Part shown: positions 2,250 to 34,090 of the stretch, in pieces | Layout of the letters: each line of letters opens with the position of its first letter | How positions within the stretch are numbered: the stretch's first letter is position 1 | Source: a virus | Lineage: Duplodnaviria; Caudoviricetes | IMG/VR virus record: IMGVR_UViG_3300035390_000014 | Span: 138,720-202,719 of that record | Strand: one strand, 5' to 3' | DNA: 64,000 nt | The notes under the pieces: generated by a model | The model's input: the letters and a program-made list of their open reading frames with translations, nothing else | What the model was told of the DNA's origin: nothing | The model's database searches: none | Translations under genes and position numbers: made by a program

Positions 2250-3275
2250 ATGGAAATTACAATTGCAGAAGTGTTGAAAGGATGTACTCCTGGTCGTATG
2301 CAAAGCGCTGGGTATATGCAGATGGTTCCATTACTATCTGAACCTGATATGATTGATAAAAGATTTGGAGCATTTACTGGAATACTATCAAGTACCCATG
2401 ATTATGGAACAGTTCATTTAGAAAATAAAGAAGACTTTCCAACAATCATGCCCATGGGAACTGCTATTTTAACTACACAAAGTGCTCAGAATCATGCTCT
2501 TGGTAAAGTTAAATTAATGACCAGAATGTCCGAATCAAATATTGATACAGCAGCTTGTATCCAGGATACTCAGGGTGGGATCATTAGAAGCGGTGTTCAT
2601 AGTTTATCAATCCTCCCATATTCAATTCGTGAGAAAGCGTTGGAAATAAAGGATAAGAGAGGTTATAGTAAACTATGGCCTGCTATCAAAGTATTTAATG
2701 AGGAAGTTGGGATTGAAGAAGGTAACTACCGTTCCATGGGTCATCTTGAACATTACCTGGAAACATTTGGTGATAAGCTTGACGAGTTCATTGGTCAGTT
2801 TGAAATTGTTCCAAATCAAGTCGGAGCAATTATTTTGTTAAATGGTCAAATTGCTGGTGTTGAAAGAGCACCCAATTATGATTTCTGGAAAGAATTGTGG
2901 AAACCATTGATTCGTGAATGTTATGGTTCTGCATCTTTGGTATTTGCTAAGAAAGGTGAGAAACCTTCACCACCACTTGGAAGAATGCCGATTAATGATC
3001 ACTTGGTTAAAAACATTGATGATCTTGAAACTGAATATAATAAGGCTGAAAAACATGAAGAAGATACTGTAAAGAATCTTATTCGGAATTTTATTCAGCA
3101 ACCATTTACTGCCACTCGGGAAGAAAATGAACCCAATGGTACTATTTGTGTGGATCATCTTAGTGGTGGTCAATTCACTGGACAGATTGTTAGAGACAGC
3201 GCATTTGTTGTTTATGCCAGTCTGGTTCCAGATAAGAATGCTCGATTTAATACAGCAGCAGCATTTACAATTTAA
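2250..3275 (+). CDS. ARPP-1/DUF6569-like protein
   Basis: AAGGAG RBS, directly after the vWA gene. Motifs GRMQSAGYMQMVPL, ACIQDTQGG and QVGAIILLNGQIAGVE recalled as this family; not verified by search. Confidence 0.45.
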   Translation: MEITIAEVLKGCTPGRMQSAGYMQMVPLLSEPDMIDKRFGAFTGILSSTHDYGTVHLENKEDFPTIMPMGTAILTTQSAQNHALGKVKLMTRMSESNIDTAACIQDTQGGIIRSGVHSLSILPYSIREKALEIKDKRGYSKLWPAIKVFNEEVGIEEGNYRSMGHLEHYLETFGDKLDEFIGQFEIVPNQVGAIILLNGQIAGVERAPNYDFWKELWKPLIRECYGSASLVFAKKGEKPSPPLGRMPINDHLVKNIDDLETEYNKAEKHEEDTVKNLIRNFIQQPFTATREENEPNGTICVDHLSGGQFTGQIVRDSAFVVYASLVPDKNARFNTAAAFTI

Positions 3276-4644: not shown

Positions 4645-4727
4645 GCAGAAGTCGGTCAACGGTAGATCACCTGCCTTCCAAGCAGGCGCTTTAAGCATTG
4701 CGGGTTCGATTCCCGTCTTCTGCTCCA
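4645..4727 (+). tRNA. tRNA-Gly(TCC) with extended variable region
   Basis: Acceptor GCAGAAG/CTTCTGC, anticodon arm CCTGC-CTTCCAA-GCAGG, 13-nt variable region, T-loop TTCGATT, CCA. Confidence 0.85.
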
Positions 4728-5023: not shown

Positions 5024-5935
5024 ATGAAAAGACAAGCGTTAGTAGATCAATTCAAAAAGGTTGGATTGGTGCTAAAAATTACCAATGGTCCGATTGGTAG
5101 AACAACAAATGATGATATCTTTCAAATGGACGTTGGTCGTAAGGTCACTGGAACAAGACGTATTGAATGGTTTGAAATCTGGCCTGGTCATGATGATAAC
5201 AAAATTCAAATTCTTGATATTGACAATAAACTTAATCAGGTTCTTCTTTTGGTTCATGAACCTGAAAGAATTTTTGAAACAGAAGAGAAAAAGCAAACTG
5301 GAAAATGGAGAGATACTCCAGAAGAAAGAAAACAATGGTTTGAAAACAATAGAGTTAAATATCGTGAAACTGAAACTCATTTCTATATCATTGAAAAATC
5401 TCCATCTTTTGTTAGGCATTTTCTCATGGGTGTTGATGAACGTCAACTTTTTGTTGCTCAACTCATTAATGGAACAACATCTATTAATGAGGCAAGAAAA
5501 CAATTAGGAAGTAGTGTTAAGTTTCATGAAGGTGTTAGAAAAATGTCACCTAAACGTCAAGGTGAATGGTTCTTTCTTAGAGCAACCAGAAAACAAGAAG
5601 ACTTGATTGATTTGTTAATTCAAAAAAATAAAGCATGGATTGTTAAAAAAGCCAATATTGGTGCTTATTCAGGTAAGCCAAGAGGTAATCCACATGTTGC
5701 TGATGAATTAGTTGTAATTAATGTTCATCCTGAATCTCTTGAAAGACTTGGTTGGTCTAAAAATAAACGTAAGAGAAATCCTAGAAGAGGAATTCCTATT
5801 AGAACAACCCAGGTTTATGTTCGTGGTGCCATTAGGCATATTGATCATAAAACTATTAAGTATTCTCATTGGTATCAGGTTGTTCTTAACAACGAAGGTA
5901 ATACTGAAAGTGCTACTCAAAGCTGGATAGATTAA
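5024..5935 (+). CDS. hypothetical phage protein
   Basis: 303 aa ORF with AAGGAG RBS; no function recognised. Confidence 0.75.
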   Translation: MKRQALVDQFKKVGLVLKITNGPIGRTTNDDIFQMDVGRKVTGTRRIEWFEIWPGHDDNKIQILDIDNKLNQVLLLVHEPERIFETEEKKQTGKWRDTPEERKQWFENNRVKYRETETHFYIIEKSPSFVRHFLMGVDERQLFVAQLINGTTSINEARKQLGSSVKFHEGVRKMSPKRQGEWFFLRATRKQEDLIDLLIQKNKAWIVKKANIGAYSGKPRGNPHVADELVVINVHPESLERLGWSKNKRKRNPRRGIPIRTTQVYVRGAIRHIDHKTIKYSHWYQVVLNNEGNTESATQSWID

Positions 5936-8013: not shown

Positions 8014-8217
8014 ATGAATAAGATAACAGTTTTATATTGGATAGGATATAATTATTCAGATATAAATATAGACCATGAACAATCATATGACTATTCAGAA
8101 AAAACAAAAAATGAACTTATCAATCTATTTTTAGGTCACGGTCATCATGTAATGTTACAACAACGAGATGAAACATTATTAATATCAATAGATGATCGTC
8201 AATTTAAACAAAGATAA
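8014..8217 (+). CDS. hypothetical protein
   Basis: ORF track; AAGGTAG RBS. Confidence 0.55.
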   Translation: MNKITVLYWIGYNYSDINIDHEQSYDYSEKTKNELINLFLGHGHHVMLQQRDETLLISIDDRQFKQR

Positions 8218-8229
8218 AAGGAGGTCAAC

Positions 8230-8283
8230 ATGAAAAAAATGTATTGGAAAGGTAACTGGGCATAGGTAAATAGACCACCCTAA
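8230..8283 (+). promoter_or_regulatory. leader peptide MKKMYWKGNWA(TAG)VNRPP-stop
   Basis: Strong AAAGGAGGT RBS; in-frame TAG at 8263-8265, then GTA AAT AGA CCA CCC TAA. Confidence 0.55.
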
Positions 8284-8356
8284 TACAAAGTATAATTTAT
8301 ATTAACGACTAAAATCTAGTTAAAACAAATTATATTTATTATTAGGAGAACTACAA

Positions 8357-8686
8357 ATGACTTTCAAAGAATTAAAAAACAGTATCAAAAAACAATTAAA
8401 AGAAACAGCTAACACTATTCGTATTTTAAAAGCAGCAAGAAAACCTCATGTCTATAATAGCAACCCTGCATTATATGATAAGTTAGGTGATCTAGATTCA
8501 CTCAGGTATAGTATAAGACATAAACACATTGCTTATTGCATGTTTTTCAATGGAACTGAATATGGTGATATTGAAAGAAAATGTAATGAGAGTCCATACA
8601 TTGGTAGAATTGATCAGTATAAAAAAGAATGGTCTTATATTGTGGAGGCGAATCAAGATGCAAAAACTGTACGTGATAGTGCGTAA
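8357..8686 (+). CDS. hypothetical protein overlapping the Pth2-like gene
   Basis: AGGAG RBS; RHKHIAYC motif. Confidence 0.7.
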   Translation: MTFKELKNSIKKQLKETANTIRILKAARKPHVYNSNPALYDKLGDLDSLRYSIRHKHIAYCMFFNGTEYGDIERKCNESPYIGRIDQYKKEWSYIVEANQDAKTVRDSA

Positions 8687-8948
8687 GGATCTAAGTCCTT
8701 CACAAATAGCTGTTCAAGCAGGTCACGCAGTAGCAGAATATTTAGTTAATGATTCAAAGACTTGGAAAAATGAGATCCTAATTTATTTGGGAGTTCCTGG
8801 TCTTAGACAGTTACATAGATGGATGATGAAACTTGATAATCAAGATGTTAAATATACTGCATGGCGAGAACCTGATATTAATAATGAAGTGACAGCAATA
8901 GCAAGCACTGGTTCAAGTGAATTTTTTAAAACATTGAACCTATTATAA
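8658..8948 (+). CDS. peptidyl-tRNA hydrolase type 2 (Pth2)-like protein
   Basis: KLYVIVRKDL, AVQAGHAVAEY and WREPDINNEVTAIA motifs. Start moved to ATG 8658 (GGAGG RBS). Confidence 0.75.
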   Translation: MQKLYVIVRKDLSPSQIAVQAGHAVAEYLVNDSKTWKNEILIYLGVPGLRQLHRWMMKLDNQDVKYTAWREPDINNEVTAIASTGSSEFFKTLNLL

Positions 8949-9024
8949 GCCGGTGTAGCTTATTGGGAGAGCCGAGAACTCTAAATTCTTGATTGAGTAA
9001 GTTCGATCCTTACCATCGGCACCA
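8949..9024 (+). tRNA. amber suppressor-type tRNA (anticodon CTA)
   Basis: Acceptor GCCGGTG/CATCGGC, D arm GCTT..GAGC with GG, anticodon arm GAGAA-CTCTAAA-TTCTT, T arm GTAAG-TTCGATC-CTTAC, A73, CCA. Confidence 0.85.
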
Positions 9025-9052: not shown

Positions 9053-9688
9053 ATGTATTATACACTTTATAAAACTACCAATATATTAAATGGGAAATTT
9101 TATATTGGGTGTCATAAAACAAATGATCTCCATGATGATTATATTGGTTCAGGCAAATATTTAACTAATTCTATTAATAAATATGGTATAGAAAATTTTA
9201 TCAAAGAAATAATGCAATTATTTTTTTCATCTGAACAAATGTATGAGATGGAAAGTTTATTAGTTGATGAAAAATTTGTTGAAAGAAAAGATACTTATAA
9301 TTTAAAAGTTGGTGGTGAAGGCGGTTTTGATTATATTAATGAAAATGGATTAAAATGTAAAACTCCTTTTATGTCTGATGCATTTATTAATGCTAGAGAA
9401 AAAGTAATATTAAAAAGAAAAACCGATCTTGAATATGCTAAACAACATTATAAAAAAACAAGAGAAGGTTTAAAAAAATATTATAAAACTAATTATAATG
9501 CATTTAAAAATCAACAACATACTGAAGAAACAAAAAAGAAAATAGGTTTAAACACCTCTTTTCATCAAAAGGGTAAAAAAAATTCTCAGTATGGGACAAT
9601 GTGGATAACCGATGGTATTAATAATAAAAAAATAAAAAAAGTTTCTATGATTCCAGAAGGTTGGAATAAAGGTAGAAAATTGAAATAA
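9053..9688 (+). CDS. GIY-YIG homing endonuclease with NUMOD3-like segment
   Basis: LYKTTNILNGKFYIGCH, YIGSG, YNLKVGGEGG and HTEETKKKIG motifs; lies between two tRNA-type genes. Confidence 0.88.
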   Translation: MYYTLYKTTNILNGKFYIGCHKTNDLHDDYIGSGKYLTNSINKYGIENFIKEIMQLFFSSEQMYEMESLLVDEKFVERKDTYNLKVGGEGGFDYINENGLKCKTPFMSDAFINAREKVILKRKTDLEYAKQHYKKTREGLKKYYKTNYNAFKNQQHTEETKKKIGLNTSFHQKGKKNSQYGTMWITDGINNKKIKKVSMIPEGWNKGRKLK

Positions 9689-9767
9689 GTCCCTGTATAC
9701 CCTCTGATTACGAACCAGATGAAAGGTTAACGGACACATGGAGGTTCGAATCCTCTCAGGGATACCA
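9689..9767 (+). ncRNA. tRNA-like RNA lacking a D arm (ACG anticodon-like loop, long extra region)
   Basis: Acceptor GTCCCTG/CAGGGAT plus A-CCA, T arm with TTCGAAT loop, TCTG..TTACGAA..CAGA arm only ~7 nt after the acceptor strand. Confidence 0.6.
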
Positions 9768-18770: not shown

Positions 18771-19427
18771 ATGGAAACCGTTAAGCTAATCGAATGTATT
18801 AACACATGGCAGGGAGAAGGTGTAGATACCGGACAAAGAATGTTGTTGTGTAGATTTAAGTATTGTAATAGAAAATGTTCTTGGTGTGATACTCTTGTTA
18901 AAATGAGAGCAGTCCAGGAAGCTGAATTTAAATTGGCCAAACTTCAAGAAATTATAGATGAAGAACGCACTGGTTTAATGATAACAGGTGGTGAACCAAC
19001 ATTTTCAAGTCAGTTGCAACAAACAATTTCCATGTTAAATACTTTAGATTATCCTGTTGCTAATGTAGAAACAAATGGTTTAGGGTTGTTGGAATTGATT
19101 AAGGAAGTTAGTCATGATAAAAATGTTCATTATAGTTTTTCACCAAAATTATTCAATGATCAAGATATTGAAGATGCACTTGACTTAGCAGAAATACTTA
19201 GTTCTAACCCTAATGTATTTCTAAAAATTGTATTTGGATATGAAAAATTAACTATAGAATTTATTGAAGATGTTATTAAATTCTTTCCTGCAAATAGGAT
19301 TTATTTAATGCCTCTTGGTAAAGATAGAGATCAAATGTTTGGTAATGCTCCAGACGTATTTGATGCAGCAGAAAAGTATAAAACTAACATTAGTAGTCGT
19401 ATGCATCTTGTATATGATTTTGTGTAG
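18771..19427 (+). CDS. queE: 7-carboxy-7-deazaguanine synthase (radical SAM)
   Basis: TWQGEG, RFKYCNRKCSWCDT, ITGGEP, VETNG, SPKL, YLMP, RMHL; promoter at 18743-18758. Confidence 0.85.
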   Translation: METVKLIECINTWQGEGVDTGQRMLLCRFKYCNRKCSWCDTLVKMRAVQEAEFKLAKLQEIIDEERTGLMITGGEPTFSSQLQQTISMLNTLDYPVANVETNGLGLLELIKEVSHDKNVHYSFSPKLFNDQDIEDALDLAEILSSNPNVFLKIVFGYEKLTIEFIEDVIKFFPANRIYLMPLGKDRDQMFGNAPDVFDAAEKYKTNISSRMHLVYDFV

Positions 19428-19433
19428 TTTGTT

Positions 19434-19679
19434 ATGAAAAATAAAAAATTAATCGACTGGTTAAGTGAATACCCAGATGATTATGATATTAATTTTTCTC
19501 AATATACCTCAATAATTGACGAAGATACTGATGAAGAATATTTCATAGTTTTAGATGATCCAATTGTTGGTATATTGAAAAATGATGATACTAAAGAAAT
19601 TCGTTTATTCACAAGATCAAGTAAAGAGAGAGTTGTAAAACAAATAGAATCTGGTGAAAACTGGAAAAAATTAATTTAA
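19434..19679 (+). CDS. hypothetical protein, in frame with queE across its TAG
   Basis: ORF track; no obvious RBS. Confidence 0.55.
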   Translation: MKNKKLIDWLSEYPDDYDINFSQYTSIIDEDTDEEYFIVLDDPIVGILKNDDTKEIRLFTRSSKERVVKQIESGENWKKLI

Positions 19680-33016: not shown

Positions 33017-33673
33017 ATGAGCTCTTTTATATTAGAAAGCGCTATATTACAGGAAGCTAAGATAGTTAAAGAAACTCCTGGTAAAGCAATATTTCGTTGT
33101 ACCATTCAAACTGCGGATGATATTAATGCAAATAAAAGAATGTATCCAAGAATGGTTCTTGAAAATGGTATGCAAAACTGTGCCCCAAGAATGAGATCAA
33201 GAGCATTCTTATCTGAATTAGATCATCCGATTCCTCAAGGTGGAGCGTTTGACCAAATAAGACAAACTACAGTTCAATTAAAAGAAGTATCTCATATTAT
33301 TAGAGATTATGAATGGAAAGGTAATCACCTAGTAGCTGAGATGGAAACAACCTCAACTCCAAATGGTGGAATACTTTGTGGTCTATTAAGAGACAATTCT
33401 GGAATTGGATTTTCTATGCGTGGATTAGCAGAGTTAGAAAGACTTCAAGAATATAATATGGTTAAAGGTCCTTTAACTATTATTGCATTTGATGCAGTTT
33501 CCCAACCTTCACATAAAGCGGCCGTAGTTAACTTTAGTGAAATGCAATTTGAATCTTCAATGTTAATGGAAAGTGTTGGACAAATATGTGTAAATGGTAG
33601 ATGTTTCTTACCAGACTATTTTGATAAATTAGTAGAATCTAGGATAGTTACATTTTTTGATAAATGGGTGTAG
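33017..33673 (+). CDS. prohead protease, T4 gp21-like
   Basis: NANKRMYP, ELDHP, GFSMRG, FDAVSQPS. Confidence 0.88.
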   Translation: MSSFILESAILQEAKIVKETPGKAIFRCTIQTADDINANKRMYPRMVLENGMQNCAPRMRSRAFLSELDHPIPQGGAFDQIRQTTVQLKEVSHIIRDYEWKGNHLVAEMETTSTPNGGILCGLLRDNSGIGFSMRGLAELERLQEYNMVKGPLTIIAFDAVSQPSHKAAVVNFSEMQFESSMLMESVGQICVNGRCFLPDYFDKLVESRIVTFFDKWV

Positions 33674-33676
33674 ACA

Positions 33677-34090
33677 ATGAGTAAATTAATTGATATCTAT
33701 CTTGAATCTTTAAACGAAGGTGTACTTAGCACTGCAGCAAAATATTGGGCACCTAAAGTTGGAAGAGTAGCCAAAACTACTGGTAAATTTTATGGAAAAG
33801 CAGCAATAAAACATGCTCCTGCTGCTGCTTATGCTGTTGGAAAAACTGCACAAACAGTTGCCAAACCAATAGTAAATGCTGGAAAAAGTGCTGGTAAAGC
33901 TATTGGACATGGAGCTGTTAATGCTGTTAGATCAGCTGGAAATAGCATGGCTAATTCAATAAAAAAACGCTGGGCTAAACATATGAAAGATAGAAAAAGT
34001 AATAAGAATATGAGAAACCTTCATAAAAATATTGCCAGAAATAAAGCTTTGGCCAAATCTAATGCTAATAATGTAAAAAAGATAAAGTAA
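33677..34090 (+). CDS. basic Ala/Lys-rich candidate internal head protein
   Basis: MSKLIDIYLESLNE (LxE sites) followed by a basic low-complexity body. Confidence 0.55.
   Translation: MSKLIDIYLESLNEGVLSTAAKYWAPKVGRVAKTTGKFYGKAAIKHAPAAAYAVGKTAQTVAKPIVNAGKSAGKAIGHGAVNAVRSAGNSMANSIKKRWAKHMKDRKSNKNMRNLHKNIARNKALAKSNANNVKKIK

Follow-up and report, generated by a model that had tools for sequence, protein, structure and literature searches.

Why would a phage that uses the standard genetic code place a mini-ORF, interrupted by an amber codon and ending in Arg-Pro-Pro-stop, at the head of a small gene cluster that closes with an amber suppressor tRNA gene? We addressed this question in a sediment phage of ~203 kb, recorded as a single 202,719-bp contig (IMGVR_UViG_3300035390_000014). 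The window, that is, the whole stretch of DNA that was analyzed, is the final 64 kb of this contig. The phage is a distant relative of T4 whose DNA polymerase is ~28% identical to cyanomyovirus counterparts; its genome, with a G+C content of ~30%, encodes 26 tRNAs and a tmRNA. Among the public runs, no RNA run containing this DNA was listed. An amber suppressor tRNA was also reported by the authors who described phage XacN1, who identified no target for it (PMC5852040).

Organization of the locus

A first-pass annotation, made from the letters of this stretch, had read a mini-ORF with a strong ribosome-binding site as MKKMYWKGNWA-TAG-VNRPP-TAA and had placed a hypothetical gene, a peptidyl-tRNA hydrolase (Pth2)-like gene and a CUA-anticodon tRNA behind it. 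We found the leader reading to be exact, the ribosome-binding site and the mini-ORF together occupying 8217-8283, and the gene order was confirmed by the open reading frames, Pfam PTH2, ARAGORN and Rfam. The features of the locus are as follows.

8014..8217, + strand: upstream 67-aa ORF, ending in TAA
8217..8225, + strand: Shine-Dalgarno (SD) sequence of the leader, AAAGGAGGT, with 5 nt between its GGAGG core and the ATG
8230..8283, + strand: leader mini-ORF of 18 codons, MKKMYWKGNWA-UAG-VNRPP-UAA
8263..8265, + strand: in-frame UAG gate, next base G, 16 nt 5' of the first anti-SD nucleotide
8272..8283, + strand: Arg-Pro-Pro-stop (AGA CCA CCC TAA), putative arrest site with the second Pro in the P site and UAA in the A site
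8279..8346, + strand: predicted SD-sequestering hairpin, outer arm CCUAAUA (8279-8285) pairing with UAUUAGG (8340-8346)
8288-8298/8327-8337 and 8302-8306/8319-8323, + strand: inner stems of the hairpin
8344..8348, + strand: SD sequence AGGAG of the 109-aa gene, inside the hairpin
8357..8686, + strand: 109-aa gene; product basic, all-helical in the model, with a conserved R-H-x-H-I-A-Y-C motif
8658..8948, + strand: 96-aa Pth2-fold gene, overlapping the 109-aa gene by 29 nt; its own SD sequence GGAGG at 8644-8648
8949..9024, + strand: tRNA(CUA) of the amber suppressor type, its first base adjoining the stop codon of the Pth2-like gene; CCA end encoded
9053-9688, + strand: GIY-YIG homing endonuclease gene, directly after tRNA(CUA)

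The codons of the leader are ATG AAA AAA ATG TAT TGG AAA GGT AAC TGG GCA TAG GTA AAT AGA CCA CCC TAA. The tRNA(CUA) gene, which lies ~700 bases 3' of the leader, was called by ARAGORN and scored 51.7 bits against the Rfam tRNA model. Among its paralogues in the genome, tRNA-Trp(CCA) is the closest, at 75% identity and one anticodon change away, a relationship that does not settle which residue is inserted.

Several neighbouring elements were noted beside this cluster. The homing endonuclease gene looks recently inserted, since the closest relatives (L017 and L018) have no ORF of that size at that place and strand. Directly 3' of it, 9689-9764 (+) is tRNA-like, with a good acceptor stem, a good T arm and a CCA end around an odd middle; it scored 26.7 bits against the Rfam tRNA model (threshold 29 bits) and was not called by ARAGORN. 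A tRNA-Gly(UCC) at 4645-4727 (+) has ~9 nt extra in its variable region, making 83 nt in total. The tmRNA gene of the phage lies outside the window, at 109075-109464 of the contig, and encodes the tag ADNFADDYALAIAA; in one relative (L001), a tmRNA gene (5548-5933) is found ~600 nt 3' of the tRNA(CUA) of the module.

The phage uses the standard code

We analyzed the genome for signs that TAG is read as a sense codon throughout. Read with the standard code, the genome has 231 ORFs of 100 aa or more, which cover 87% of it and end in TAA (153), TGA (49) and TAG (29). Genome-wide recoding of TAG (code 15) was rejected, as the coverage was already 87% and reading TAG as sense added little to it. 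Neighbouring ORFs in the same frame that were split by one TAG were few, about as many as expected by chance, and the single UAG of the leader was the only conserved in-frame UAG found in the window. The phage is thus a standard-code genome with an 'orphan' suppressor tRNA.

Two TAG-terminated genes in the window are in frame with the ORF that follows. The TAG that terminates the head maturation protease gene (33017-33673, +) lies one codon before the ORF at 33677-34090, and amber read-through would fuse the two; chance and a real product are both possible. The gene for a QueE-like radical SAM protein (18771-19427, +) also ends in TAG and is in frame with an 81-aa ORF (19434-19679).

Conservation of the leader

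We found the motif 'TAG, 1-6 sense codons, R/K, Pro, Pro, stop' a single time when both strands of the 202,719-bp genome were scanned, and each of 20 shuffled genomes gave 0-1 occurrences. Homologous loci were collected first (95 loci; 76 distinct loci with a 109-aa gene entered the comparison) and then through the Pth2-like protein (71 more loci, with 43 new ones that have a 109-aa gene); dereplication was by sequence and took no account of phylogenetic independence. We defined the core motif as TAG, 0-8 sense codons and CCN CCN in frame, at most 176 nt before the 109-aa gene. This core was present in 74 of the 76 distinct loci. As controls, 200 shuffles yielded 1.0 on average and at most 5, the reverse complement carried the core in 9 of 76 loci, and 7.6% of windows drawn at random from the same loci contained it. 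It was also present, with exact RAPP ends among the matches, in 37 of the 43 further loci. Of the six exceptions, three have an R-S-P-stop end and a fourth has its R-G-P-P nine codons past the TAG, while the other two (L123 and the TGA-gated L158) are without a TAG…Pro-Pro core. The core was therefore conserved in 111 of 119 loci in all, with the neighbouring protein down to ~35% identity. A chance ORF between genes might be suspected from the shortness of the leader and the AT-richness of the genome; conservation over such a range already refutes this explanation, to which we attach next to no probability.

The leaders of the nearest relatives read MKKIYWKGNWE-TAG-VVRPP-TAA, MKKIYWKGNWD-TAG-VARPP-TAA and MKRVFW-TAG-VPDT-TAG-VIRPP-TAA, the last with synonymous Pro codons (CCT CCA, where the window has CCA CCC). 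Very distant loci have shrunken leaders such as ML-TAG-VFRPP-stop, MY-TAG-IRPP-stop and MT-TAG-VQIYKPP-stop. In another clade, the leader extends a small Cys-rich upstream ORF by read-through of the TAG that closes this ORF, as in ...EWTDD-TAG-VSPP-TAG-GRSRDPP... and ...TAG-ASRGPP... An in-frame start preceded by an SD sequence was found for 67 of 74 leaders, 46 of which are short, most often M-x-TAG. Two TAGs are present in 55 of 74 leaders; the window has a single UAG in its leader and none inside the Pth2-like gene, and so represents the weakest gate of the family. One leader (L094) has TAA in place of TAG, M-T-TAA-VIFLKPP-TAA, and its contigs are too short to reach the position of the tRNA.

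A predicted hairpin over the Shine-Dalgarno sequence of the 109-aa gene

We folded the RNA that joins the end of the leader to the first gene. The segment 8262-8362 gave one long hairpin with a free energy of -18.9 kcal/mol, as compared to a mean of -8.4 for dinucleotide shuffles (z = -4.4). The 5' arm, CCUAAUA, begins at the second base of the final Pro codon and runs through the UAA stop to the second base after it, and the 3' arm, UAUUAGG, holds the first half of the AGGAG SD sequence of the 109-aa gene. Of 74 minimum-free-energy folds, 53 had at least three SD bases paired with the Pro-Pro region; in the remaining loci for which an SD sequence was found, it paired with bases 10-36 nt past the first Pro codon (mostly 11-25).

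An alignment of 12 close relatives (MAFFT and RNAalifold) recovered the inner AT stem only, with the arms misaligned, and the alignment-based structure was replaced by a comparison of cognate and non-cognate arms. Here the arms were found to co-vary: the mean duplex energy was -16.5 kcal/mol for cognate pairs versus -9.1 for non-cognate pairs, and in 54 of 74 loci the cognate pair ranked among the best 5%. The difference persisted when the Pro-Pro and SD cores were left out, with -8.8 for cognate versus -4.3 for non-cognate arms. Together, the folds and the co-variation of the arms indicate that the predicted hairpin sequesters the SD sequence of the 109-aa gene.

The position of the stem relative to the gate was also analyzed. 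The anti-SD bases lay a median of 20 nt, and in no locus fewer than 14 nt, from the first base of the last TAG, and a ribosome terminating at the TAG should therefore leave the stem closed. On the other side, in 87.5% of the loci every anti-SD base lay within +15 nt of the putative arrested P-site codon, that is, inside the ribosome footprint.

Evidence that the leader frame is read and UAG decoded

The hairpin could belong to an element of RNA only that responds to some other trigger, with no reading past the UAG and with the Pro-Pro codons kept solely as a CCUCC anti-SD sequence. Such a reading draws on the first Pro codon, which is CCT in 50 of 74 loci, and on the ability of CCUCC to pair with GGAGG. 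We counted stop codons by frame in the 45 nt before Pro-Pro and obtained the following numbers.

TAG: 131 in frame 0, 30 in frame 1, 18 in frame 2
TAA: 2 in frame 0, 45 in frame 1, 27 in frame 2
TGA: 2 in frame 0, 28 in frame 1, 26 in frame 2

Since TAG is enriched in frame 0 while TAA and TGA are nearly absent there, these counts indicate that the leader frame is translated, that TAG is selected in it and that other stops are avoided, all of which speaks against an RNA-only element. The residue before Pro-Pro points the same way. Position -1 holds a basic residue in many loci (K in 19, R in 17), and 33 loci have R at -2 with G or D at -1. The basic residue is encoded by AGA, AAA, AAG, CGA or CGT, and its retention through five different codons suggests selection at the level of the peptide. 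The start codons and SD sequences upstream of most leaders, the R-S-P-stop variants, which are without CCNCC, and the CCACCC of the window itself, which is not CCUCC, are likewise at odds with an RNA-only element, and we regard it as very unlikely. Part of the Pro-Pro conservation could nevertheless lie at the RNA level, with CCUCC as anti-SD sequence; the CCA CCC of the window is a partial anti-SD sequence only.

We also analyzed the contexts of the TAG codons. With E. coli suppressors, a purine after the TAG and Pro or Thr before it favour suppression over termination. A purine stood 3' of the TAG in 129 of 137 cases, and Pro or Thr preceded it in 62 of 137, indicating from context that the TAGs are placed where suppression is favoured. 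In 69 of 74 loci, the last TAG was spaced 3-5 codons from Pro-Pro.

The Pth2-like ORF itself was interrupted by one in-frame stop in 12 loci. This stop was TAG in 12 of 12 cases and fell in a variable surface loop (at the position of Lys34 in the window), a position that gives no clue to the inserted residue. Ten of these loci belong to the sister clade of the window's phage and two are distant. As the TAG lies within the ORF, a full-length Pth2-like protein in these 12 phages needs amber suppression. These sequences, taken together, argue that TAG is decoded in this phage group.

Linkage to the suppressor tRNA

The gene order of the window recurs in homologous loci. In 56 of 59 loci the 109-aa gene is followed by the Pth2-like gene, the two usually overlapping by ~26 nt, and a tRNA(CUA) on the same strand follows the Pth2-like gene in 44 of the 52 loci with enough sequence; 56 distinct CUA tRNAs were found in the homologous loci. 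In the sample collected through the Pth2-like gene, a suppressor-type tRNA was present in 61 of 71 loci; 65 of these tRNAs had the anticodon CUA, one had UCA and one UUA. L158, where the tRNA(UCA) was found, has a leader gated by TGA at 2064-2096, M-K-TGA-VSTRGSP-TGA (ATG AAA TGA GTA TCA ACA AGA GGT TCT CCA TGA), and the anticodon of its neighbouring tRNA (2972-3044) matches the gating stop; this covariation of stop and anticodon comes from one locus. The locus with tRNA(UUA), L170, showed no leader of this type in the one stretch inspected.

Read-through at UAG is a competition between the tRNA and release factor 1 (RF1). The leader might accordingly gauge the activity of the host RF1 and not the phage tRNA, with read-through rising when RF1 is scarce or inhibited. 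Read-through of UAG always reflects this competition, and the TAG contexts described above look tuned for weak termination, both of which agree with such a role. The linkage of the leader to tRNA(CUA) and to suppressor-type tRNAs in general, the pairing of the lone TGA leader with a tRNA(UCA), and the two or three serial TAGs of many leaders, which need an efficient decoder, speak for the tRNA as the input instead. We consider a leader that reports on RF1 quite unlikely as an explanation of its own; it is a nuance of our main model more than a true alternative.

The first-pass annotation had interpreted the leader as a sensor that links amber read-through to ribosome rescue. It had left to be checked whether homologous leaders keep the TAG and the Arg-Pro-Pro end, and had named a sense codon in homologues, together with the lack of a CUA tRNA, as speaking against its own interpretation. 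What we found is the opposite: homologous leaders retain TAG, mostly two of them, and a Pro-Pro end at the frequency given above, and tRNA(CUA) accompanies most of them. Leaders and tRNA linkage thus both support the sensor interpretation, to which the present analysis adds the predicted hairpin as output mechanism; ribosome rescue is one function that the two genes may have.

The two proteins

The 109-aa protein had more than 240 homologues in metagenomes, while a tblastn search of 50,697 phage records gave no match. No match was obtained in Pfam, PHROGs, the PDB sequences, Foldseek against the PDB, or the Atlas (by features and by shape), and a wide VIA-align search gave a best Z of 5.8, to generic helical hairpins. 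The predicted structure is all-helical (pLDDT 92), and the invariant residues include R54, H57, Y60 and C61.

The 96-aa Pth2-like ORF matched Pfam PTH2 (PF01981) marginally, with 23.1 bits at a cut-off of 23. The profile of its family matched the solved Pth2 chains 24bt (E = 1.5e-4) and 2zv3 (E = 1.1e-3), and the predicted structure (pLDDT 95) aligned in Foldseek with archaeal Pth2 and human Bit1 at TM scores of 0.74-0.81 and E-values down to 6e-7. The model thus indicates that the product of the second gene has the Pth2 alpha/beta fold. Its invariant residues are R9, Q20, H23, E71, D73 and T79. In archaeal Pth2, catalysis involves a Lys of the GKGK loop and an Asp of the D-x-G-x-T segment. 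In the phage protein, Asp73 and Thr79 align with the C-terminal segment of Pth2, whereas the GKGK loop is two residues shorter and contains no Lys that is conserved. As the Lys-rich loop of canonical Pth2 is shortened, the substrate of the phage protein may differ.

The Pth2-like protein also matched proteins of Lak phages, Xanthomonas and Stenotrophomonas phages and other huge phages. In Xoo-sp13 (Xanthomonas; L096, 1961-2803) and RAS14 (Stenotrophomonas; L097, 2021-2806), a protein of ~270 aa has the Pth2-like domain at its C-terminal end. When the N-terminal domain of Xoo-sp13, the one of the two that was compared, was set against the 109-aa protein, no likeness was detected. These two genes were rejected as instances of the same module, since no tRNA is nearby.

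The pair of proteins may serve to clear peptidyl-tRNA under read-through, or may feed back on the suppressor. Our guess is that the two handle tRNA esters that are produced or used under suppression, in one of these two capacities.

Proposed mechanism

We propose that read-through of the UAG leads to arrest at an R/K-x-P end, that the arrest melts the hairpin, and that translation of the 109-aa and Pth2-like proteins is thereby turned on; we put the probability of this reading at roughly 0.7. When UAG is not decoded, the ribosome would terminate at 8263-8265, 16 nt before the hairpin, so that 8279-8346 would stay closed and the SD sequence hidden. When UAG is decoded, for which the tRNA(CUA) that closes the same cluster would be the obvious decoder, five more codons would be read, and the ribosome would be expected to pause at Arg-Pro-Pro-UAA. 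The paused ribosome would cover and melt the 5' arm of the hairpin, the SD sequence would become free and the 109-aa gene would be translated, and the Pth2-like gene would follow by translational coupling through its overlap with the 109-aa gene. Several TAGs in series, as in most relatives, would steepen the response. The arrest, the activating direction and the neighbouring tRNA as decoder are parts of this scheme that we infer.

A pause at Arg-Pro-Pro-UAA is to be expected because R/K-x-P in the P site, facing a stop or Pro, matches the RxPP/RAPP arrest module. Termination is known to be slow after a C-terminal Pro. Arrest at RxPP is known to vary with the peptide context upstream, and many of the phage leaders are only 8-10 residues long. 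RxPP is a minimal arrest module in which the Arg stacks on the 23S rRNA and no peptide bond is formed with the A-site Pro-tRNA (PMC10951233). The window ends in N-R-P-P-stop, with the Arg directly before Pro-Pro, and not in R-x-P-P; R/K-x-P on the P-site tRNA would fit as the common denominator of all the leader sequences, the R-S-P-stop variants included. EF-P may relieve pauses at Pro-Pro, and plain transit of the ribosome could open the hairpin without any arrest.

The same leader could instead act on transcription in the manner of tnaC. Termination at the UAG would then uncouple translation from transcription and let Rho stop RNA polymerase, whereas a ribosome parked at Pro-Pro-stop would block Rho. 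Transcription would thus continue into the two genes and tRNA(CUA), which amounts to positive feedback on this tRNA. A Pro-stop arrest serves TnaC against Rho in this manner. The tRNA(CUA) gene of the phage abuts the operon on the same strand, as such feedback would require, and engineered switches with a UAG in the leader do act via Rho (PMC6412442). The distance from the first Pro codon to the ATG of the 109-aa gene is short, however (49-130 nt, mostly 60-90), and this spacer is nearly filled by the hairpin that pairs with the SD sequence. A scan for promoters and terminators gave chance-level counts, with no terminator-like site on this strand. We consider transcriptional control unlikely as the explanation of the leader, and it may be a layer added to the SD switch.

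Discussion

Our analysis suggests that the amber-interrupted mini-ORF is a leader in which decoding of UAG would open the SD sequence of its own operon. Several known systems come close to this design. The RAPP/RxPP leaders ApdA and ApdP and the RAG-P motif of SecM (PMC10951233) likewise have an Arg two positions before the P-site Pro, Pro-Pro, a short upstream ORF and control over translation of the next gene, and exact RAPP, RGPP, RDPP and RSPP ends occur among the relatives of the window, with R-[G/D]-P-P in 33 of 74. The input of those leaders is the state of secretion, whereas here it would be read-through of one to three in-frame UAGs; in addition, the window has a stop in the A site (R-P-P-UAA), so that arrest would occur at termination. 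The predicted hairpin, in which the leader's end is base-paired to the SD sequence of the regulated gene, is of the type of SecM-secA, MifM-yidC2 and ErmCL-ermC.

Arrest at a stop codon after a short leader, as inferred here, is a property of TnaC and PepNL, and in PepNL stop-codon read-through also alters the outcome (PMC11890864). In PepNL, however, read-through by Trp-tRNA cancels the arrest (PMC11890864), while in the phage leader read-through of an earlier UAG would be needed to reach the arrest site. The phage unit also differs from both TnaC and PepNL in that it includes a dedicated suppressor tRNA gene. The prfB gene for RF2 is autoregulated through an in-frame UGA, by a +1 frameshift inside the regulated gene. 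There, too, an in-frame stop gauges the capacity of the cell to decode that stop, whereas in the phage suppression would occur in a separate leader and would open an SD hairpin.

Two further systems use TAG itself. Synthetic TAG codons in the trp and tna leaders make downstream expression depend on suppressor translation past the UAG of the leader (PMC6412442); these are engineered and act on transcription via Rho, while the phage leader is natural and conserved and apparently acts on the SD sequence. The 'code change modules' of recoded phages (Borges et al., 10.1101/2021.08.26.457843) share with our locus a phage tRNA(CUA) and TAG-conditional expression. Those phages are recoded, whereas here the code is standard and TAG gating is confined to the small operon of the tRNA itself. 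The term 'peptidyl-tRNA' does not occur in the preprint, and the portion of it covered here describes no such leader. The papers retrieved contained no description of a natural leader gated by stop-codon suppression. Judged from its sequence in more than 100 diverged phage loci, the leader looks like a natural, conserved and apparently unpublished sensor of read-through.

If the proposed mechanism is true, this would be the first natural regulatory leader, among the literature found, that has stop-codon suppression as its input and a counterpart of the engineered TAG switches, and it would join leader peptides that respond to tRNA supply with RxPP arrest peptides that open an SD sequence, under a new input. 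The leader module is small and portable. Phages with the standard code often carry amber suppressor tRNAs without a known target; here a conserved, probable target is at hand in the leader of the tRNA's own operon, and the module ties a Pth2-fold enzyme and a helical 109-aa protein to the biology of the suppressor tRNA. More speculatively, and with considerable doubt on our part, the operon might form a self-referential homeostat or timer, in which the suppressor tRNA, acting through the leader and in sister phages also through the UAG within the Pth2-like gene, turns on a Pth2-fold esterase and its helical partner, which in turn deacylate or hydrolyse the suppressor or its products and so close the loop. 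Such a loop would set how much UAG read-through occurs in the infected cell, or when. If true, such a homeostat would be a new circuit for control of the genetic code and would give a function to the 'orphan' suppressor tRNAs of standard-code phages.
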